From assembly GCA_963714935.1 (NCBI GenBank), contig CAVQQA010000005.1:28289-92288 (forward strand): a DNA stretch of 64,000 nt, in the 5' to 3' direction. Each line of letters starts with the position of its first letter. The first letter of the stretch is position 1. The stretch is from an uncultured Actinomycetes bacterium (GTDB lineage: Bacteria; Actinomycetota; Thermoleophilia; Solirubrobacterales; Solirubrobacteraceae). The position numbers and the translations under genes are program-made. Below, in pieces: positions 64-52,327 of the stretch. The notes below the pieces were generated by a model, which was not told where the DNA came from, did no database searches, and worked only from the letters and a program-made list of their open reading frames with translations.

Positions 64-2365
<2,302 letters not shown>

Positions 2366-2473
2366 GTAATTCTGAACCTTCCTTCCGAGCCGCCTTCGGA
2401 TCCTGCGGCTCGCTTGTGCTTATTCATCTCTATATCCGAACGGCACCATCCTAGCCAGACCGCCGCGGGCCAC

Positions 2474-40826: not shown

Positions 40827-43247
40827 TCAGGCCGCGGGCAGTGGCTGGCTGAGCGTCAGCACCTCCGCGAAGAGGTCTCCGTGCTCCGCGATCCGCTCGC
40901 GGACCTGGCCCGCCGTGAACACCAGCTGCTCGGCGTCCCCTGAGGCGAGGCATGCCTCAACCTCCTCCCACGTCACGGGCGTCGAGACAGTCGGCCGGTC
41001 ACGACCGCGCAGCGAGTAGACGGCGACCGTCGTCTTGGCACGGTCGTTCTGCGCCCAGTCGATCAGCACCTTCCCCCTGCGCGCCGTCTTCGCCTGAGTG
41101 GACACGGCCAGCGCGGGCTCCTCGCGGGCGAGCAGGTCCGCAACGGCCCTGGCGAACGTCTTCGAGGCCTCGAACGTCGCATCGGGCCGGTTCAGCGGCA
41201 TGTACACCTGGAGACCCTTGGAGCCTGACGTCTTGGCGAGACTGTCGAGGCCGAGCCCATCGAGCATGCCGCGAAGCAGTCGCGCGACCTGACAGCACTC
41301 GACGATCGTCGCCGGCGCGCCGGGATCGAGGTCGAAGACCACGGCGGTGGGACGGTCCGCGGTCTTCGCGAGCGCGAGCGAGGGATGCAGTTCCAGCGCT
41401 GCCAGCTGCGCCAGCCAGACCAGCGTGGCGGGCTCGTCTGCGAGGACGAAGTCGATCGTCTCGCGGCCGAGCGTGACCGCCTGCGTCTTCGCCCAGCCCG
41501 GTCTGTGTGACGGTGCGCGCTTCTCGAAGAAGGCCTCACCCTCGACGCCGTCCGGGTAGCGCTTCAGGGTCAGGGCGCGGCCCGCGAGGTGCGGCAAGAG
41601 CGTCCATGCCACCGCCGCGTAGTAGTCGATCACCTGCCGCTTGCTGAAGCCCGCCTCCGGGAAGAGCACCTTCTCGAGGTTGGTGACCGCAACCCGGCGC
41701 CCGCCGATCAGCGCCGTCGCCGTTGCTCCCCTGCCGCGCACGTTCCGCTCTTCGACGAGCACCAGCCTGGTCGGCCCGTCGTCGCGCAGGCCGAGCCACA
41801 CGGGGTGGCGCAGCAGCCCGCCCTCGGGATGCTCGGTGAAGCGGACCTCGCCGACCAACTCCGGCGAGACCCAGTGGCTGCCGGACGGCGGGCCGCTGCC
41901 GCGGGCGGTGGCCGCGAACGGGGAGCGATCCGCCGCGAGCGGCTGCAGGCGCGCCGCGAGGTCGTCCAGTGCCCGCTCGGAGAAGCCGGTCCCGACCCGC
42001 CCGGCGTAGCGCAGGAGACCATCGGCGCCCGGTTCGCCGACGAGCAGTGCGCCGATCCCGCCCGAGCGTCCCCCCTCCCCCTCGACCCAGCCGCCGATGA
42101 AGAGATCCGCCGTGTGGCCCTGCTTGACCTTGACCCACGCGCTGCTGCGCCTGCCCGGTTCGTAGGGGGCGCTGCGCCGCTTGGCGACGATGCCCTCGAG
42201 TCCGAGGCTCGCGGCCGCGGTCAGGAGCGCCGCGCCTTCGTCGTGAGGTTCAGGCGTCTGCCAGTGATCGCCGTCGAGGTCCAGGGCGCTGAGCAGTTCG
42301 CGGCGATCGGAGTACGGGAGCCCCATCAGCGAGCGTCCATCGAGCCAGAGCAGGTCGAACACCACGTAGGTCACGGGCACCTCGCCCGCGAGCTTGCGAA
42401 CCCGGGCTGCGTTCTCGACGTGCATGCGGCGCTGAAGCGCCTGGAAGCTGGGGCGCCCCTGCGCGTCGAAGGCGACGATCTCCCCGTCGAGCACCGCCGA
42501 GTGCTCATGGAGAGCGCGGTTCATGCGTGCGAGCTCTGGATAGCGAGCGGTGATGTCGCCGCCCGATCTCGCAGACAACGTCATCCGCCCCGGCTCCGAA
42601 CGCGCTTGCGCGCGAATACCGTCCCACTTGACCTCGAACGCCCAGTCGTCGCCCTCGGGCACCTCTCCGGGCCGGGCCAGCATCGGCGCCACGAAGTCCG
42701 GCATCGGCTGCGCGTCAGGGTCGGCCGGCGCGCCCATGCGGTGGATCATCCAGTCCTTGCCCGCCGGCTCACCGGCGGGCGCGAGCGGGAACAGCGCGTA
42801 GCGCCCGCGCACTCGCTCTCCGTGCAGGTCGACCTCCACCTTGCGCGCTTCCCACTTGAGCGGCTCGTAGGTCCCCGAGTCGTGGATGCGCATCGTCCCC
42901 GCGCCGTACTCCCCCTCCGGAATCTCGCCCTCGAACGCGAGGTAGTCGATCGGGTGATCCTCGGTCCGCACCGCGATCCGGTTGTCGCCGGACGACCCGG
43001 GGATGTACCGCGGCAGCGCCCACGAGACGAGCACGCCGTCACGCTCCAGCCGCAGGTCCCAGTGCAGCCGGGTCGCGTCGTGCTCCTGGATCACGAACCG
43101 CGGGGCGTTGCCCGTCTCGCCGTCCGAGGCACCGCCGGCAGGCTCGGGCGTCGCACCGAAATCCCTCTTCGAGCGATATCCACGGAGCGGGTCGGCCACC
43201 CCGCCGTTATACCCGTCACGGGGCGACTCGGAGGCCCGTATCGACAC
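40827..43247 (-). CDS. ligD: multidomain NHEJ ligase LigD (3'-phosphoesterase - ATP-dependent ligase - polymerase/primase)
   Basis: Intact 806 aa. PE domain: PRFVIQEHDATRLHWDLRLE. Ligase: FEVKWDGIRAQA (KxDG). Polymerase: LTLKRYPDGVEGEAFFEKRAP. No ku gene is adjacent. Confidence 0.9.
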   Translation of the reverse strand: MSIRASESPRDGYNGGVADPLRGYRSKRDFGATPEPAGGASDGETGNAPRFVIQEHDATRLHWDLRLERDGVLVSWALPRYIPGSSGDNRIAVRTEDHPIDYLAFEGEIPEGEYGAGTMRIHDSGTYEPLKWEARKVEVDLHGERVRGRYALFPLAPAGEPAGKDWMIHRMGAPADPDAQPMPDFVAPMLARPGEVPEGDDWAFEVKWDGIRAQARSEPGRMTLSARSGGDITARYPELARMNRALHEHSAVLDGEIVAFDAQGRPSFQALQRRMHVENAARVRKLAGEVPVTYVVFDLLWLDGRSLMGLPYSDRRELLSALDLDGDHWQTPEPHDEGAALLTAAASLGLEGIVAKRRSAPYEPGRRSSAWVKVKQGHTADLFIGGWVEGEGGRSGGIGALLVGEPGADGLLRYAGRVGTGFSERALDDLAARLQPLAADRSPFAATARGSGPPSGSHWVSPELVGEVRFTEHPEGGLLRHPVWLGLRDDGPTRLVLVEERNVRGRGATATALIGGRRVAVTNLEKVLFPEAGFSKRQVIDYYAAVAWTLLPHLAGRALTLKRYPDGVEGEAFFEKRAPSHRPGWAKTQAVTLGRETIDFVLADEPATLVWLAQLAALELHPSLALAKTADRPTAVVFDLDPGAPATIVECCQVARLLRGMLDGLGLDSLAKTSGSKGLQVYMPLNRPDATFEASKTFARAVADLLAREEPALAVSTQAKTARRGKVLIDWAQNDRAKTTVAVYSLRGRDRPTVSTPVTWEEVEACLASGDAEQLVFTAGQVRERIAEHGDLFAEVLTLSQPLPAA

Positions 43248-43281
43248 CGACGCTCTGACGGTGCGGCCTCGCGATGGCTGA

Positions 43282-43334
43282 CAAGGACGCAGGGAGCGTG
43301 GCGTGCGCCAGCACGCGAGCGACCGAGGACGCCG
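43282..43334. repeat. 53-bp intergenic repeat, copy B (exact match to 3061-3113)
   Basis: Identical 53-mer, 22 nt past the MoaD-like stop on the minus strand and 35 nt upstream of the ligD GTG. The next ~18 nt towards the stop codon are also about 80% similar between the copies. Confidence 0.9.
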
Positions 43335-43356
43335 TCAGCCGCAGCGAGACGCGCCG

Positions 43357-43635
43357 TCAGCAGCCGCCGGCCACGGCGGGGAGGATGGTGACCTCCTGCC
43401 CCGGGGCGACCTCGGTCTCGAGCGCCTCGCCGAAGCGGATGTCCTCGCCTGCGACGTACACGTTCACGAACCGGCGCAGCCCACCGCTCTCGTCGGTGAG
43501 GCGGTCGCGCAGCTCGGCGTGCTGCTCGAAGAGAGCGTCGAGAACCGCTCCAACGGTGGCGCCGTCGACCTCGACCGCGCTGACGCCGCCGGCCGCCTCG
43601 CGCAACTGCGTCGGGAGCTTGACGGTGACGCTCAT
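43357..43635 (-). CDS. MoaD/ThiS-family ubiquitin-like sulfur-carrier protein (or a C-terminal carrier domain fused to the upstream ThrC-like enzyme), ending ..AVAGGC
   Basis: The ATG at 43635 gives 92 aa: MSVTVKLPTQLREAAGG..VNVYVAGEDIRFGEALETEVAPGQEVTILPAVAGGC*. This is a beta-grasp carrier pattern with C-terminal Gly-Gly plus one Cys. No stop codon separates it from the upstream ORF. Confidence 0.75.
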   Translation of the reverse strand: MSVTVKLPTQLREAAGGVSAVEVDGATVGAVLDALFEQHAELRDRLTDESGGLRRFVNVYVAGEDIRFGEALETEVAPGQEVTILPAVAGGC

Positions 43636-44899
43636 GCGCGAACGCCCTCGACTCTCGACGTCTGCCACGAACGAGTCGTATGAGGCATCGATCTCGAATG
43701 TGTCGAACGTGTCGCGGACGGCGTCGAGCGTCTTGAGGCCTTCGCCGGTGATCGTCAGGACGACACTCTCGTCAGGCCGGATCGCGCCCCGCGCCGCGAG
43801 CTTCGCAAGGCCTGCGGTGGTCACGCCGCCGGCGGTCTCCGTGAAGATCCCGGTCGTCTCGGCGAGCAGCCGGATGCCGTGGCGGATCTCCTCGTCGGTC
43901 ACCGACTCGATCGTCCCGCCGCTGGTCTTCGCCAGCTCCAGCGCGTAGGGGCCGTCCGCCGGGTTGCCGATCGCGAGCGACTTGGCGATCGTGTCGGGCT
44001 TGACCGGCCTGCAGACCTCCGCCCCGCTCTCCCACGCCTGCGCGACGGGCGAGCAGCCACTGGCCTGCGCTCCGTGCATGACCGGCACGTCACCGCTGAT
44101 GAGGCCGAGGTCCAGCCATTCGCTGAAGCCCTTGGCGATCTTCGTGTACAGCGACCCGGACGCGACCGGCGCGACGACGCGATCCGGTGTGCGCCATCCG
44201 AGCTGCTCGGCGATCTCGTAGGAGATCGTCTTCGAGCCCTCCGCGTAGTACGGCCGCAGGTTGACGTTCACGAACGCCCAGTCGCGCTCGCCGGAGAGCT
44301 CGGTGCACAGGCGGTTGACGTCGTCGTAGTTGCCGCGGACCTTCACGACGTTGGTGCCGTAGACGCCGGTCGCCAGGACCTTCTGCTCCTCCAGGTCGGC
44401 CGGGATGAAGACGTAGCTGTCCAGGCCGAGTGCCGCGGCGTGTGCGGCGACGGAGTTCGCGAGGTTGCCCGGTCGAGGCGCACGCGAGCACCTCGTAGCC
44501 GAGTTCCCTCGCGCGGGCAGCGGCGACGCTGACGACGCGGTCCTTGAACGAGTGTGTGGGATTGGCCGCGTCGTTCTTGACCCAGACCTCGCCGAGCCCG
44601 AGCCGCTCGGCGAGCCGGTCGGCGCGAATCATCGGGGTGCAGCCTGCGGGCAGGCCGCTGCGTGAAGACGCTCTCCCGGACGGCCCGGGCTGCCCGCCGA
44701 CGAGCGGCAGGAAGTCCGCGTAGCGCCAGATGTTCTGAGGTCCGCCCTGGATGCGGCGGCGGATCTCCGCACGGTCGGTGGTCAGCCCGGTGTGGTCGTA
44801 CGCGACCTCGAGCGGACCGAAGCAGCGGCTGCAGACGTAGCTCGCATCTAGTTCGTACTGCGCGCCGCACTCGCGGCAATTCAGGCTTGTAGCTCCCAT
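43636..44899 (-). CDS. threonine-synthase-family PLP enzyme with an N-terminal zinc ribbon (ThrC-like; possibly a MetM-type homocysteine synthase); one frame break near 44468
   Basis: MGATSLNCRECGAQYELDASYVCSRCFGPLEV, NPTHSFKDRVVSVA (PLP lysine), ACASTG(+1 nt)NLANSVAAHAAALG and GNPADGPYALE..ETAGGVTTAG. It is preceded by a SAM riboswitch. Confidence 0.85.
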
Positions 44900-44944
44900 G
44901 GAAACCTCGCTGTGACACGTGGCGGAGACCTCTGGAAGCTCCGT

Positions 44945-45031
44945 CCACATCTTTCAGGAATTGGCACCGTCCCCAATTACGGGGGGTTGCCGGGGTTTCG
45001 TCGGGCCAGTCCCTCCACCCCTCTGGATGTG
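44945..45031 (-). promoter_or_regulatory. SAM-I-family riboswitch aptamer lacking P4 (SAM-I or SAM-I/IV variant)
   Basis: The minus strand reads CACAUCCAGAGGGGUGGAGGGACUGGCCCGACGAAACCCCGGCAACCCCCCGUAAUUGGGGACGGUGCCAAUUCCUGAAAGAUGUG. This is near-identical to the SAM-I core (AGAG-GGUGGAGGGACUGGCCCGAUGAAACCCGGCAACC...GGUGCCAAUUCC..GAAAGAUG). P1 is CACAUC/GAUGUG. It ends 45 nt upstream of the ThrC-like ATG. Confidence 0.85.
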
Positions 45032-45118
45032 TCAGCTATGTGGGGCGGCAGCCTAGCACGCAGGTAGACTGGAACGCGAGGCGAAATCCGATGAACACCG
45101 ACGAGCCGCGAAGTCCCG

Positions 45119-46129
45119 ATGCCCAGCCTGCCGAAGCCCCGCCTGCGCAGAGCAGCCCGTTCTCGCGCTGCCGTTCTCACCCAGCCGCCTGAGGCTCCGA
45201 CCCCGCAGATCGAGTCCATCGACGCCGGCCCCGAGGGTCGGCCGCTGCGCTGGATCAACCTGGAGCGCTGGCGCCCGACCGAGCGCGCCTGGCTCGAGGA
45301 GCACTTCGACTTCCACGCCCTCGACTACGAGGATGTCGGCTCGCGCAACCAGCGGCCGAAGGTCGACGAATACGACGACTACCTGTTCATCGTGCTGCAG
45401 TTCCCGCGCTACGACAAGCAGCTCGGCCGGCTGAGCGCGATCGAGATCGACATCTTCCTGGGACCGGACTACGTGATCACGATCCCGGACCGGCCGCTTC
45501 AGTCGCTCGATTACCTCTTCGAGCGCTGCCGCGACAAGCAGGACCTCCGTGAGCAGCTCTTCGGCAAGGGCCCCGGATACCTGCTCTACCGGATCGTCGA
45601 CGACTCCGTCGACGCGGCGTTCCCGATGCTCCGCAAGATGGGCAACAAGCTCGAGCGTCTCGAGGACGACATCTTCGAGGGCCGATCGAACGAGGTCGTG
45701 CGCGACATCTTCGACGTCAAGCAGGAGATCATCAACTTCCGCAAGACCGTGCGGCCGATGCGCACGGCGCTCAGCGACCTGGAGCGCACCACGAAGCGGT
45801 ACATCCCAGAGGAGCTGGAGATGTACTTCGACGACATCAACGACGCGTCCGAGCGCATCTGGGACATGCTGGAGAACTTCAAGGAGGTCGTCGAGGCGCT
45901 CGAGGCGACCAACGAGTCGGTCATCTCACATCAGCTGAACGACGTGCTGCGCGTGCTGACGTCGATCAGCGTCGTCGTGCTTCCGCTGACGCTGATCGCG
46001 AGCATCTTCGGGATGAACGTCCACGTCCCCTGGCAGGACGAGACCGAGGGCTTCGTCGTGACGATCGGCGTCATGGTGGCGCTGCTGCTGGCGATGGTCT
46101 GGGCCTTCCGCCGCCGCGGGTTCCTCTGA
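45119..46129 (+). CDS. corA: magnesium/cobalt transporter CorA
   Basis: Intact 336 aa with a C-terminal two-TM region carrying the signature ASIFGMNV (GMN motif). Confidence 0.9.
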   Translation: MPSLPKPRLRRAARSRAAVLTQPPEAPTPQIESIDAGPEGRPLRWINLERWRPTERAWLEEHFDFHALDYEDVGSRNQRPKVDEYDDYLFIVLQFPRYDKQLGRLSAIEIDIFLGPDYVITIPDRPLQSLDYLFERCRDKQDLREQLFGKGPGYLLYRIVDDSVDAAFPMLRKMGNKLERLEDDIFEGRSNEVVRDIFDVKQEIINFRKTVRPMRTALSDLERTTKRYIPEELEMYFDDINDASERIWDMLENFKEVVEALEATNESVISHQLNDVLRVLTSISVVVLPLTLIASIFGMNVHVPWQDETEGFVVTIGVMVALLLAMVWAFRRRGFL

Positions 46130-46161: not shown

Positions 46162-47148
46162 TTGTGTCCATGTCCCTCCCCGCCGTGCCATCGACACTCG
46201 CCGTCGAGGACCTGGAGACGAAGGCGCGGTCGCCGCCGTCTGGCGCTGATCGTCAACCCGTACGCGACATCCGTGTCGCGCCACATGCGCACGCTCGTGC
46301 TGGCCGCTCTGCGCAGCCGCTATGAGATCGCCGTGATGGACACGTCGGGACCCGGGCACGCCACCCAGCTGGCGCGCGAGGCGGCGGAGGAGAACGTAGA
46401 CGCCGTGATCACGTTCGGCGGGGACGGCACGGTCAACGAGGCGGCGAACGGCCTGGCCGGCAGCGAAGTTCCCCTGTTCCCGTTGCCCGGCGGCTCCCAG
46501 AACGTCTACGCCAAGATGCTCGGCATCTCCGGCGACATCGTCGACGCCACACAGCACCTGCTCCGCATCGACGACAGCTGGCGCCCCCGCCGCGTCGACC
46601 TCGGCCGCGTTCAGGGGCGGCTCTTCACGTTCTCGGCGGGCGCGGGCCTGGATGCGAGCGTCGTCGAGCGGGTCGATGCCAACCCCGCACGCAAGGCTCG
46701 CTGGCGCGAGCGCTACTACGCCGTCAGCGCGGCGCGCGTCTTCCTGCGCCGCTACATCGTCCGGCCGCCGCGCATCCACATCGAGTCTCCGGACCATTCG
46801 GTGCGCGGGGTGACCGTGATCGTCCAGAACGGCGACCCCTACACCTACTTCGGTCAACGACCGATCCGCGTCTGCGAGGGGATCGGGCTCGACGACGGGA
46901 CGCTGTCCGCCGCCGTCCTCGAGCGCGCCTCGCCGGTCGACCTCCCGACGATGGGCGCGCGCCTGCTTGCAGATGGACTCGAGGCCACCGATCACCGCCA
47001 CGCGAGCTCCCTCCCGGGGCTCGCGGGTTTCGACGTGCGTGCCGTCGGGGAGCGCCCGTTCGCCGTCCAGGTCGACGGCGACTTCCTGGGGCGCTTCGAT
47101 CACGTGCGCTTCGAAGCCGTCCCCGAGGCGCTGACGGTCGTCAGCTGA
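46162..47148 (+). CDS. diacylglycerol/lipid kinase family protein (DAGK catalytic domain); N-terminus ambiguous
   Basis: RRLALIVNPYA..AVITFGGDGTVNEAANGL..PLPGGSQNVYA. The TTG-46162 reading gives an odd Cys/Pro-rich start. ATG 46170 (MSLPAVPSTLAVEDLETKA) would need a 1-nt correction near 46240. Confidence 0.8.
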   Translation: MCPCPSPPCHRHSPSRTWRRRRGRRRLALIVNPYATSVSRHMRTLVLAALRSRYEIAVMDTSGPGHATQLAREAAEENVDAVITFGGDGTVNEAANGLAGSEVPLFPLPGGSQNVYAKMLGISGDIVDATQHLLRIDDSWRPRRVDLGRVQGRLFTFSAGAGLDASVVERVDANPARKARWRERYYAVSAARVFLRRYIVRPPRIHIESPDHSVRGVTVIVQNGDPYTYFGQRPIRVCEGIGLDDGTLSAAVLERASPVDLPTMGARLLADGLEATDHRHASSLPGLAGFDVRAVGERPFAVQVDGDFLGRFDHVRFEAVPEALTVVS

Positions 47149-47565: not shown

Positions 47566-49929
47566 CTAGGCGCTCGGCGTCACCCGGTAGGCGTCGAAGA
47601 CGCCCTCGATGTGCCGCAGTCGGCTCACCATCGCCTTCAGCGCCTGCGTGTCGGCCACCTCGACAACGAAGCGGTTGCCGACCATCGGCCGGTTCACCAG
47701 GCAGCGCGCTTCGACGATGTTGATGCCGTGCTCGGAGAAGGTCCGCGACAGGTCCTCGAGCAGGCGGTGACGGTCCCATGCGTCGACCTGCAATCTCGAC
47801 CTTGAACGAGGTCTCGTGGTCGCCCTCCCAGTGCACGGTCACGAAGCGCTCGGGGTCCTTGCGCAGCGCGGCGACGTTCGGGCAGTCGTCACGATGGATC
47901 GTGATCCCGCGACCGAGCGAGACGTAGCCGACGATCGGGTCGCCCGGAACCGGGTGACAGCACTTCGCGAGCCGCAGCATCACGTCGTCGACGCCGTCGA
48001 CCCGGATGCCGTACGTGGCCGACGAGCCGCCCGGCTGGCGCCGCCGACGACGGTCTGAGACCAGCGTGTCGGGCACGCCGCTCTCCTCTTCAGCGGCCTC
48101 GCCCTGCTTGAGGCGCTGCATCAGCTTGTTGACGACGACCTTCGGTGAGATCTTCGCTCCGCCGAGCGCGATGTAGAAGTCGTCGGCCTTGCGGAAGCCC
48201 ATCTCGCGGATCACGTCGGCCAGCAGCGGCGAGCCCGCGATCTTCTGCGCCGGCAGACCAGCCTTGCGCAGATGCTCCTGGAGCAGATCGCGCCCGGTGT
48301 GCTCGGCGTCCTGGCGACCTTCGGCCTTGAAGAACTGGCGGATCTTGTTGCGGGCGCGCGTCGTCTTGACGACCGCGAGCCAGTCACGCGACGGCCCGCG
48401 CTCGCGCTTGCTGGTCAGCACCTCGACGCGGTCGCCGGAGCGCAGCTGGTAGGTGAGCGGGACGATCCGTGCCGTTGACCTTCGCCCCGACACAGCGGTG
48501 GCCGAGCTCCGTGTGGATCTCGTAGGCGAAGTCGAGCGGGGTCGCGCCGGCGGCGAGTGACTTGACCTCGCCCTTGGGCGTGAAGACGAAGACCTCCTCG
48601 CTCGATCAGGTCGTCCTTGAGGTGGGCTCGACGAACTCCTTGGGGTCCGACAGCTCCTGCTGCCAGTCGAGCATCGAACGCAGCCAGTGCAGCTTCGCGT
48701 CGCCCTCCGGGACCTTGACGCGGCGACCCGACGGGTCGGTCTTGTACATCCAGTGCGCGGCGACGCCGTACTCGGCGATGCTCGTGCATCTCCCGGGTCC
48801 GGATCTGGATCTCCAGCGGCAGTCCCTCGGGTCCGATCACCGTCGTGTGCAGCGACTGGTACAGGTTGAACTTCGGCATCGCGACGAAGTCCTTGAAGCG
48901 CCCGGGCAGCGGCTTCCAGAGCGAGTGGATGACTCCCACGGCTCCGTAGCAGTCCTTGACGGAGTCGACGATGACCCGCATCGCGGTCAGGTCGTAGATC
49001 TCGTTGAACTCGCGGCCCTTGCGGGTCATCTTCGAGTAGATCGAGTAGAAGTGCTTGGCGCGGCCGGAGATCTCGCGCGTCGATGCCGACCGCGTCGAGC
49101 TCGCGGCTCAGCGTCTCCGCCGGCGTCGGTGACGTAGTGCTCGCGCTCGCTCGCGCTGCTGGTTGACCAGCCCCTTGATCTCCTGGTACTTGCGCGGATG
49201 CAGCGCGGCGAAGGCGAGATCCTCGAGCTCCCACTTGATCGCGTGGATGCCGAGCCGGTGCGCGATCGGCGCGTAGATCTCAAGCGTCTCCTTGGCCTTC
49301 TCGATCTGCTTCTGCTTGGCAGAGCGCCGAGATCGTGCGCATGTTGTGCAGGCGATCGGCGAGCTTGATCAGGATGACCCGGATGTCCGTGGCCATCGCG
49401 ACCATCATCTTGCGGTAGTTCTCGGCCTGCGCCTCGTCGCGCGAGGTGAAGGTGATCGCCGTCGAGCTTCGTGACGCCGTCGACGAGCGATGCGACCTCC
49501 TCGCCGAAGCGCTCGCTCGACCTCGGCCAGCTGCGCGCTCGTGTCCTCGACCGTGTCGTGCAGCAGCGCGGCGCAGAGCGTCTCGGTGTCGAGCCGCATT
49601 CCGGCGCAGATCTTCGCCACGCCGACCGGGTGGACGATGAACTCCTCGCCCGACTTGCGACGCTGGTCGGCGTGATGACCATAGGCGAACAGGAACGCCG
49701 CGGTCACGCGGTCGCGGTCCACCGGCAGCGCCGCTTCGTCGGCGTGCTCCTCGACGATCGCGAACAGGTCTGACAGCAGGCGCTCAGCGGTCGGCGTCAG
49801 CTCCCCGACGTGCGTCGGCGCCGCGCCGTTGGCGCGATCGACCGCGTCGACCGGGCTGCGGCTCGTGACCGCCGGCCGCGGCGACGACTCGGTCGTCAGG
49901 CCGCCAGCGCGATCGTGCGGGTCAGCCAT
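47566..49929 (-). CDS. relA: bifunctional (p)ppGpp synthetase/hydrolase RelA/SpoT homolog, many frame breaks
   Basis: ATG at 49929. HD domain: [31 protein letters not shown]. Synthetase: [39 protein letters not shown]: [12 protein letters not shown]-terminus: ORF 47566-47793. Confidence 0.9.
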
Positions 49930-52327
49930 CGCCGGCGCTCCTGAGCGAGGTCGAGCAGCCCGAGGAAGCGTCTCCGAGCGGTGCACCTCGGCACGGTTCT
50001 GGACGTCGGGCACGGAGATTCGCATCGCGGGAACGTCGACATCGACGACTCCGAGCTCGTGCAGCACTCGCAGCAGGCGACCCGCTCGTCCCGGAGAGCG
50101 CGCGGCGCGCGCAGCGTCCGCAACCGCGGACGACGCGTCGCGGAGCGCGCGGTACAGCAACGCGAGATCGCTGCGCAGTCGCTGCTCATCGTCGAGAACA
50201 TCAAGAGAGAAGCGTAACTCAGGCTCTCCCCAGGCCAGGTGGGTCGCGCGCCCCTGGGGCGGCGACCGCAACAGCGAATCGAGCGCTGCGGACGGGGGCG
50301 GATCGAGCGCGACCACATTGCTGAACGCATCGGCGATCCCCGCGTCGCGCTCAAGCGCGTCCCAGGAACAGATCGCCAGCCCGCCGATGCGCCCACGCAG
50401 CGCCTCTCGGCGCGTCGTCTCGCATGCACAGGCAACGAGCACCCGCTCGCCCGAGGCGACGAGCGCCCCCAGCGTCCCGAGGAGCCCACGCCCGCGACGA
50501 TCGCGCACCGGCCCGCCGGACGCAGCCCGCGGCGGCCCCTCCGCCGGCGCCGCCGGCGCGGCGAAAGCCTCGAACTCGGCGAACATCGCAGCCGCATCGT
50601 CCTGAGGGCGCCCGGCGAACGCGATCGGGCCCGGTGCCGGCGACAGCGCCGATCGCAGCACGAGCCGGGGCTCCTCGCGCCCGTTCCAGCGATTCACCTC
50701 GAGCGCGAACGTCGCGTCGAGCGCCTCGTCGTGCCCGGACGGGAGCCGGCGAGCGACCGAATGCGACCGCAGCGGCACGAGCCCCACCCGAGTCGAGGGT
50801 GAAGCGCAGGTGCTTACCCTCCCCCATCGGGCGCGGATCGCACATCCGCCCGGCCGGTACGAGCAGCGAAACCGGCGGGTTGCCGACTGCCGAACGGCGC
50901 GAGCCGCGCGCAGCTCCTCGGCGAGCGCGAGCCCGATCTCGTCGCCCGCCACGACGGCGTCGACGCGCTCGCTCGGCACCAGATCGGCGGGCGACAGCAC
51001 GGCTGCGGCGTGCGCCGCGAAGGCATCGCGCGAACGCCTCGATCTCCGAGCGCGCGACGGTGCAGCCCGCTGCCGCCCGATGCCCGCCGTGACGCAACAG
51101 GTGCGGCGCGCAGGCGTCGAGCCCGGCGAGCAGGTCGAAGGCTGGGATCGACCGGCCGGACCCGGTGCCGGTCTCGCCGTCAAGCGCGATCAGCACCACA
51201 GGACGGTGATGGCGCTCGGCGAGCCGCGAGGCGACGATCCCGATCACGCCGGGATGCCAGCCCTCGCCGGCGAGCACGTACGCAGCGCGGTCGCCCAGCT
51301 CGCGACCATGCGCGACTCGGCTTCGAACAGGATCCGCGTCTCCACATGACGGCGTTCGCGCGTTCAGCGCGTCCAGCTCGCGCGCGATCCCCTCGGCTCG
51401 CGCCGGATCGAGCGTGAGCAGCAGCTCCACTCCGGCGTCGGCGCGCTGCAGGCGGCCCGGCGGCGTTGATCCGCGGGGCGAGCCGGAAGGCCGACGGTCT
51501 GCTCGTCGATCAGCGGCCGGATCGACCTGGGTGACGTCGCATCAGCGCCCGCAGACCCTCGCGGCGCGTGCGCGACAGCGCAGCGAGACCCTCGCGCACG
51601 AGCCGGCGGTTCTCGCCGACGCAGCGGCACGCAGTCGGCGATCGTCGCGAGCGCGACGACGTCCAGGTCGACGTCGGCGTCCGCAGGGTCGTGGCCGGCT
51701 CCGGCCAGCAGCGCCGCCGCGAGCTTGTAGGCGACACCCGCCGCGCAGAGGTCCGCGCACGGATAGCCGCAGACGCGCGGGTGGACGATCGGCGCGTCCG
51801 GCAGCACGCCGTCGGCGCGCGGCTCGTGGTGGTCGGTGACGACGCACGTCGACACCGAGCTCCGGGCGCGCGGCGACCTCGTCGACGGCGGTGATCGCGC
51901 AGTCGGCGGTGACGAGCAGCCCGGTGCCCACCGCGGCGAGCCGCTCCACGGTCGCAGGTGCTCAGGCCGTAGCCGTCGTCGGCGCGGCTCGGGCAGGAAC
52001 CAGTTGACGTCGGCGCCGAGCACCCGCAGGACGCGGACGAGGATCGCCGTCGACGCGACCCCGTCGCAGTCGTAGTCGCCGTGGACGATGATGCGCGAGC
52101 CGCGCTCGACGTGCCCGAGCACGAGAGCCACGGCCGTGTCGATCCGCTCGAAGGAGCTCGGCAGGTGCCGTTCCTCGGCGGTCATGAAGTCGCTCGCCGC
52201 GGCAGGATCGGCGAGACCGCGCCGCACGAGGACCTGGGCCATCGCGGCGCTGACGCCGAGCTCGCTCCTCGAGCCGCGCGCAGTCGGCGACGGGCGCAGC
52301 GGGTATCCGGAGGCTCGGCTCGTCCAC
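49896..52327 (-). CDS. recJ: single-stranded-DNA-specific exonuclease RecJ, many frame breaks; 3' end uncertain (49896 or 49922)
   Basis: GTG at 52327. LGVSAAMAQVLVRRGLADPAAA, IIVHGDYDCDGVASTAIL (DHH motif I-II), VVTDHHEP, VALATIADCVPL and GGHRAAAG pieces across frames. Confidence 0.85.

Follow-up and report, generated by a model that had tools for sequence, protein, structure and literature searches.

The CysO-CysM-Mec system of Mycobacterium tuberculosis and the HcyS-HcyD-HcyF/MetY system of Wolinella succinogenes both depend on a thiocarboxylated sulfur carrier protein. In the former, the carrier gives its sulfur to a pyridoxal phosphate (PLP) enzyme whose substrate is an O-phospho amino acid. 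In the latter, the carrier thiocarboxylate is used for the formation of homocysteine: a C-terminal extension of the carrier is cut by a JAMM-type protease, the genes for the E1 enzyme and for the protease are clustered, and the PLP enzyme is an O-acetylhomoserine sulfhydrylase of the MetY type. The locus described here features a ThrC homologue instead. It lies in a stretch of 64,000 nt from an uncultured Actinomycetes bacterium of the Solirubrobacteraceae, indicated throughout as "the window", and is composed of an S-adenosylmethionine (SAM) riboswitch, the coding sequence of a ThrC-family PLP enzyme and that of a small sulfur carrier of the ThiS/MoaD type, apparently joined in frame.

The same ingredients are found in Streptomyces albulus, where homocysteine is synthesized by the thiocarboxylate-dependent MetM/MetO system (Hasebe et al. 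2024, as cited in bioRxiv 10.1101/2024.10.14.618325 and in PMC12172450). A SAM riboswitch upstream of S. albulus metM is described in PMC12172450, and the GapMind 2026 preprint includes the Mec hydrolase among the parts of the MetO pathway; the biochemistry of the system has been published, with the roles of both Mec and MoeZ.

The best explanation for the locus as a whole, to which we assign a probability of about 0.82, is a two-gene metM-like/metO-like operon, controlled by a SAM-I riboswitch, where the fusion of the two genes is artefactual. The MetM/MetO pathway is already published, and the locus is one more operon of that type. Like the S. albulus system, it combines an upstream SAM riboswitch with a ThrC-homologous PLP enzyme and, beside the latter, a small ThiS/MoaD-type carrier; neither a MoeZ-type E1 nor a Mec-type hydrolase is seen beside the pair, and the carrier may need an extra residue to be trimmed. 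The two differ in lineage, Thermoleophilia/Solirubrobacterales here and Streptomyces there, and the present locus is likened to the other through the published description. The apparent fusion does not add a real difference. The likeness with CysO-CysM-Mec concerns the carrier, a close relative of CysO, and the chemistry mentioned above: the partner enzyme is of the ThrC family and not of the CysM/cysteine synthase type, regulation is by SAM and not within a cysteine regulon, and a mec gene is not adjacent.

Enzyme, carrier and riboswitch

Two minus-strand open reading frames (ORFs), 44950/44899..44090 and 44346..43357, represent two frames of one ThrC-like gene, as indicated by the ORF list and by three-frame translation. 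The frameshift falls within the run CCGGGCAAC and breaks the enzyme after ...ACASTG, before NLANSV..., the protein being conserved on both sides. Its position, defined by the ORFs and by alignment to the closest relative found, L007 (ENA ERZ25039600, contig_21526, 743 kb), confirms the single +1 error proposed at about 44468 in the preliminary description. When this base is removed, a reading of 513 amino acids is obtained, starting with a Cys4 zinc-ribbon-like region and continuing with a PALP domain and a 92-residue domain of the ThiS/MoaD/SAMP1 type. No stop codon is found between the enzyme part and ATG 43635: both this and the size of the carrier had been correctly read from the letters of the window. 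The enzyme likely starts at ATG 44899 rather than at ATG 44950, because the latter sits within the riboswitch aptamer.

The assignment of the two parts to the ThrC and ThiS/MoaD families, also anticipated, is supported by profile searches. The enzyme matches Pfam PALP with 249 bits and the NCBIfam thrC model TIGR00260 with 266 bits (cut-off 167), in addition to an N-terminal Cys4 zinc-ribbon-like match; the closest model, PRK08197, scores below its cut-off (269 vs 303). Both are older than the description of MetM, and may fail to tell it from ThrC. A cysteine synthase model is absent among the 25 families shown for the enzyme, where all best matches are threonine synthase models; best matches among PDB sequences are likewise threonine synthases (E = 1e-44 to 1e-54), and homologues are annotated as "threonine synthase" in public collections. 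The HSFKDR motif, which contains the PLP lysine, does not vary among the aligned orthologues.

The carrier part, encoded by the last 92 codons (MSVTVKLP...AVAGGC*), matches Pfam ThiS with 58 bits and the NCBIfam SAMP1/MoaD models with 72 and 50 bits, so that the carrier-like part does hit the expected families. Among PDB sequences, its matches include M. tuberculosis CysO 3dwg_C (E = 9.4e-21) and 4n6e_B (E = 3.7e-21), with an end-to-end alignment through the Gly-Gly; for both enzyme and carrier, the sequence matches to solved structures (ThrC and CysO) are unambiguous. In relatives the carrier is encoded by a free-standing gene of 91-92 codons.

The cysteine following the Gly-Gly had been regarded as unusual, a view which comparison with relatives does not sustain. 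The window carrier ends in GGC, that of L007 (97% identical) in GGS, that of L001-L004 (an 88% relative) in GGL and that of L005 in GG; among the 75 species representatives whose carrier end was read, 72 have a carrier that stops at GG with no extra residue. Free-standing homologues end in GG, GGS, GGC, GGCV, GGAA, GGR, GGAQR and in longer tails. To judge from these sequences, an extra residue after the Gly-Gly is a common and variable feature, as in carriers of the CysO/HcyS type; where it is present, trimming of the carrier would be needed. The idea that GG-Cys denotes a special cysteine chemistry was considered and rejected: where the window has a TGC codon, the 97% identical relative has TCC, most species lack the position altogether, and nothing sets the cysteine apart, because the residue varies (C, S, L or none).

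The SAM riboswitch upstream, also present in the preliminary description, is confirmed by Rfam: the SAM-I model RF00162 scores 82 bits, the gathering score being 44.4 (E = 8.5e-18). In 20 out of 20 relatives tested, a SAM-I riboswitch precedes the enzyme by about 45-60 nt, with scores of 64-92 bits. The folding energy of the leader is unremarkable (z = -1.28), and a scan of 43200-45200 for promoters and terminators returned nothing, no terminator-like site being found.

Some details of the leader may be added. The aptamer of the window is short (90 nt), with the P4 hairpin of the Rfam model deleted; several relatives are similar in this respect (87-90 nt), and longer aptamers, of 111-124 nt, are found in relatives L011, L012, L020 and L023. 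A GC-rich hairpin (GUGGACGGAG...CUCCGCCAC) is predicted to overlap the 3' strand of P1 and to extend past it. The combination of a short aptamer with a hairpin overlapping P1 is reminiscent of SAM-I/IV-type variants.

Function of the enzyme-carrier pair

The testable features of a MetM/MetO-like system are present at the locus (a ThrC-family PLP enzyme, an adjacent carrier ending in Gly-Gly, a SAM riboswitch) and the pairing of enzyme and carrier is conserved across Solirubrobacterales. By analogy with the S. albulus system, the pair probably functions in homocysteine synthesis, in keeping with the function originally suggested, which family membership, the conserved pairing and the riboswitch in all 20 relatives continue to favor. 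In the real organism, the TGA of the enzyme gene most likely overlaps the carrier ATG (ATGA), resulting in translational coupling. We infer from the same analogy how the system might work. The one extra C-terminal residue of the carrier would be removed by a Mec-type JAMM hydrolase, and its C-terminal glycine would then be adenylated and thiocarboxylated by a MoeZ-type E1-rhodanese, both encoded elsewhere. The PLP enzyme would use the carrier thiocarboxylate to displace the phosphate of O-phospho-L-homoserine, yielding homocysteine; SAM, acting on the riboswitch, would switch the operon off when methionine/SAM are plentiful.

Two results count against this function. No JAMM, ThiF/E1 or rhodanese was found in the 64 kb of the window by a six-frame motif scan, the only search made, whose matches were merely arginine-rich out-of-frame noise; this agrees with what had been stated of the neighborhood. 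In addition, when the enzyme was compared to the NCBIfam profiles, no MetM-specific model was matched, and the generic thrC model was above cut-off. E1, JAMM and rhodanese genes are not near the enzyme-carrier pair in the contigs of relatives inspected, either.

An unlikely alternative is that of a genuine threonine synthase, standing beside the carrier of another pathway (cysteine, molybdopterin), in a pairing without functional meaning. It draws on the TIGR00260 score, well above cut-off, on the threonine synthases found as best PDB matches (E = 1e-54) and on the public annotation. Several data are at odds with it. The SAM riboswitch, a mark of methionine/SAM regulons, accompanies the gene in 20 out of 20 relatives; the enzyme-carrier pair is conserved in 78 of 80 species, usually with a stop/start overlap; hom and thrB are not adjacent, the neighbors being corA, a DAGK-family kinase gene and ligD; the equivalog model PRK08197 remains below its cut-off. 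As to the annotation, MetM is reported to be a ThrC homologue often misannotated as threonine synthase. Both context and regulation are wrong for a threonine-pathway thrC. Nor is the locus of the CysM type, its PLP enzyme being from the wrong family.

The apparent enzyme-carrier fusion

The preliminary description had proposed a covalent fusion of enzyme and carrier and had left, as an alternative, a separate carrier gene starting at ATG 43635. The alternative is the correct one, as shown by orthologues and by the junction of L007: the fusion is very probably a sequencing artefact, on the evidence of the sequence comparisons reported below.

L007, reached through protein P0167 from a junction-centred search, is 96.6% identical to the window over the 1.68 kb including riboswitch, enzyme and carrier, and has the same gene neighborhood. 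Within this region, exactly three single-nucleotide indels distinguish the two DNAs: two are extra bases in the window, the first causing the enzyme frameshift and the second the apparent fusion, and one is an extra base in L007. At the junction, L007 reads GAGAGTCAGTGCGTTCGCGCATGA, i.e. GAG AGT CAG TGC GTT CGC GCA TGA, encoding ESQCVRA*, whose stop codon shares bases with the start codon of the carrier (ATGA). In the window, the corresponding letters are GAGAGTC[G]AGGGCGTTCGCGCATGA: when one G is taken away, ESQGVRA* is obtained, with the same ATGA overlap. The apparent fusion is thus produced by a single inserted base, located 15 nt before the natural stop, so that the last five codons of the enzyme are read in the carrier frame and the TGA is bypassed. 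After removal of both inserted bases, the enzyme is 421 residues long and ends in ...FVADVESQGVRA*, with its TGA (43634-43632) overlapping the carrier ATG; its identity is 78-88% when compared with unfused orthologues of 416-426 residues, and about 96% when compared with L007 over the stretch that P0167 covers.

Fused proteins were looked for by four routes: full-length homologues, junction-centred matches, an exhaustive set of cluster representatives, and 80 species-representative genomes from GTDB, all from Solirubrobacterales. Nearly all the fused examples encountered proved to be frameshift artefacts, the clean-looking exception being a short JGI contig, L008. When the corrected 513-residue protein was used as a query, 119 of the best 120 homologues (out of 8000 matches; 78-88% identity) were unfused proteins of 406-439 residues, which cover about 81% of the query and feature the PALP domain alone; their C-termini coincide with the point where the window continues into the carrier ATG. 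In the contigs of the two best matches, the order corA, ThrC-like gene, ThiS gene, ligD is the same as in the window, with enzyme and carrier separate. The metM-metO-ligD arrangement, together with the adjacency of corA, is kept in L001-L005 and in L007, not in L006, which lacks both ligD and corA. Enzyme and carrier are separated by a 46-nt spacer in L001-L004, and overlap by 4 nt (ATGA) in L005.

The species representatives give the same answer, running counter to the proposed fusion: in 78 out of 80, enzyme and carrier are encoded by separate genes. The two genes overlap by 1 nt (TGATG) in 43 of the 78 and by 4 nt (ATGA) in at least 7; the rest have spacers of 2-77 nt. The carrier was not found in one of the 80 genomes, and the sole fused case, L014, is due to a frameshift following a GGGG run, the true tail, GTFESFEIDASFDTFERVVEPAVAAGATR*, being encoded in another frame. 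Similarly, in P0046, the sole full-length fused match among the best 120 homologues, the conserved tail ...DVASFEAAGERLRVPA* and its stop are found in another frame.

All matches of the junction-centred search were singletons truncated at the N-terminus, 150-300 residues long, from long ENA contigs. Most of the 14 junction-spanning proteins which were read feature arginine-rich, out-of-frame linkers or interiors (e.g. P0121, P0128, P0133, P0135); in P0121, for example, 17 out-of-frame residues lie between FEIDA and MPKV. Finally, 1.84 billion cluster representatives were exhaustively searched with the 329-residue ORF of the window that spans the junction: among the best 150, the carrier is reached only by multi-frameshift mosaics (P0333, P0321, P0290, P0357), the first three of which, when looked up, proved to be singletons.

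The presence of insertion errors is not limited to this locus, and in relA and recJ their rate is locally very high. When the intact RelA of L005 was compared with the window by tblastn, six collinear pieces were obtained, in frames -2/-1/-2/-3/-1/-2; relA is split into at least 6 frame segments, each still showing a high identity. Global DNA alignment to the intact relA (96%) and recJ (93%) of L007 revealed 11 and 16 indel events, respectively, all of them insertions of 1-2 nt in the window, most being of G or C. A BLAST indel census of the same two genes counted 31 one- or two-base window insertions, again mostly of G or C, and 3 deletions. About 30 insertions with almost no deletions in housekeeping genes is the error profile of assembly or basecalling and not of biological decay, as read from these alignments, because the genes are otherwise 93-96% identical to intact orthologues. 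Relatives with names of the "contig_N" type come from the Nanopore-only Microflora Danica soil assemblies (PMC12313526), or are similar to them.

Some observations speak against an artefactual origin of the fusion, or make it less secure. L007 has a +1 C of its own, which cuts its called enzyme to 285 residues (P0167); since it carries at least one error in the metM-like gene and apparently others in ligD, errors are found on both sides of the comparison. Two pattern scans of JGI metagenomes for the window's own population gave no matches, and look-ups of the exact products found neither the window carrier nor its 329-residue ORF on record. As no raw reads or independent assembly were found, the error status of the extra G rests on a 96.6% identical relative and on the error profile of the window. 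To these the clean-looking join of L008 may be added, which could represent either genuine read-through, as a rare variant, or one more error.

If the in-frame join were real, a natural 1-nt insertion would have produced a single-chain MetM-MetO, whose C-terminal Gly-Gly(-Cys) carrier, once trimmed and thiocarboxylated, would serve its own active site or that of a dimer partner. This would be the first covalently tethered sulfur carrier/PLP sulfhydrylase. The sequence, as given, has no stop; one mutation suffices when stop and start overlap by 1-4 nt, and the L008 contig has a clean in-frame join. Such a protein would be chemically feasible, as a C-terminal carrier keeps its reactive end free, and carrier-enzyme fusions are known: MoaX of M. 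tuberculosis (PMC4326299) is a genuine fused MoaD-MoaE molybdopterin synthase. There, however, the carrier forms the N-terminal part and activity requires a cut after its Gly-Gly, while the fusion described here is read as artefactual, with orthologues encoded by separate genes. A real fusion is in fact very unlikely: the same gene has a second, similar insertion, which is necessarily an error, about 30 more are found in neighboring housekeeping genes, the closest relative L007 is unfused, and an intact full-length fusion was not found in the best 120 homologues, in the best 150 cluster representatives or in the 80 species representatives. Least probable of all is a decaying pseudogene, with the enzyme inactivated at codon 144 and the stop loss as a second lesion: a frameshift in the conserved core (ACASTG/NLANSV) would indeed inactivate the enzyme, but other lesions are absent, intact orthologues share up to 88% identity with the corrected protein and the P0167 part of L007 about 96%, and the same logic would demand, for relA/recJ, about 30 insertions with hardly any deletions, the opposite of bacterial pseudogene decay.

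Pseudo-fusions in sequence collections and other features of the window

The arrangement of SAM riboswitch, metM-like and metO-like genes, with a tight stop/start overlap, is conserved across Solirubrobacterales. One indel in the variable tail of the enzyme is enough to fuse the two ORFs, because at 71% GC stops are rare in all frames and the genes overlap by 1-4 nt; in high-GC genomes, genes coupled by ATGA or TGATG may thus become apparent fusions through a single indel. Proteins of the family featuring both PF00291 and PF02597 (PALP+ThiS), i.e. P0046, P0121-P0151, P0333, P0321, P0290, P0357 and the L014 case, appear to be mostly frameshift pseudo-fusions from long-read metagenome contigs. 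Long-read metagenome assemblies have seeded public protein collections with these PALP+ThiS pseudo-fusions, which surveys of domain architecture and fusion-based prediction of function ("Rosetta stone" inference) will take for real.

Features of the locus and of other parts of the window are collected in Table 1.

Table 1. Position of the described features within the window; for indels, the base is given in brackets and the last column reports comparison and effect
Feature	Position	Strand	Basis or remarks
SAM-I riboswitch aptamer (S-box)	44944..45033	-	Rfam RF00162
metM-like gene, ThrC-family PLP enzyme with N-terminal Cys4 zinc ribbon	43632..44899	-	Pfam/NCBIfam matches; L007 alignment
Indel, extra C in L007	44509		Breaks the enzyme gene of L007
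Insertion no. 1 (+1, read as spurious), CCGGG[C]AACC	44467..44470	-	Base absent from L007 and from all orthologues; placed at 44467 in the L007 alignment; enzyme frameshift
Insertion no. 2 (+1, read as spurious), GAGAGTC[G]AGGGCG	43649	-	L007 DNA alignment, extra G in window; apparent fusion
metO-like gene, 92-residue sulfur carrier of the CysO/ThiS/MoaD type, ending in AVAGG-C*	43357..43635	-	Pfam, NCBIfam and PDB sequence matches
ligD, intact, 806-residue LigD (phosphoesterase, ligase and primase-polymerase domains)	40827-43247	-	Directly downstream of the carrier gene
relA/spoT and recJ	47566-52290	-	About 30 single-base insertions, compared with intact orthologues 93-96% identical
pnp (polynucleotide phosphorylase)	~130-2400	-	Repeated frame changes
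Start of the DAGK-family kinase gene	46164-46226	+	First ~21 residues in another frame

In L007, ligD is apparently broken: only a 324-residue Prim-Pol fragment and a spurious antisense ORF are present. In the L008 contig (protein P0127; JGI 3300044720, Ga0467035_0186681, positions 28-693), which is 1.3 kb long, the enzyme tail continues in frame into the carrier, through a plausible linker (EIEPSIEAFEQVLARDAVGAVKSVVP-MAVTV); at the edge of the contig, an in-frame TAG precedes the called start by 8 codons.

The annotation of the window will need frameshift-aware methods. For pnp, frame changes were detected both by a frame plot of GC content at third codon positions (GC3) and by translation of fragments, which point to similar breakage in other housekeeping genes of the window; the GC3 frame plot suggests the same fragmentation over much of the first 30 kb of the window. 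The frame change at the start of the DAGK-family kinase gene was located by tblastn with the L007 orthologue. One window insertion is reported for this gene in the indel census, and it is probable that the gene carries another single-base insertion.

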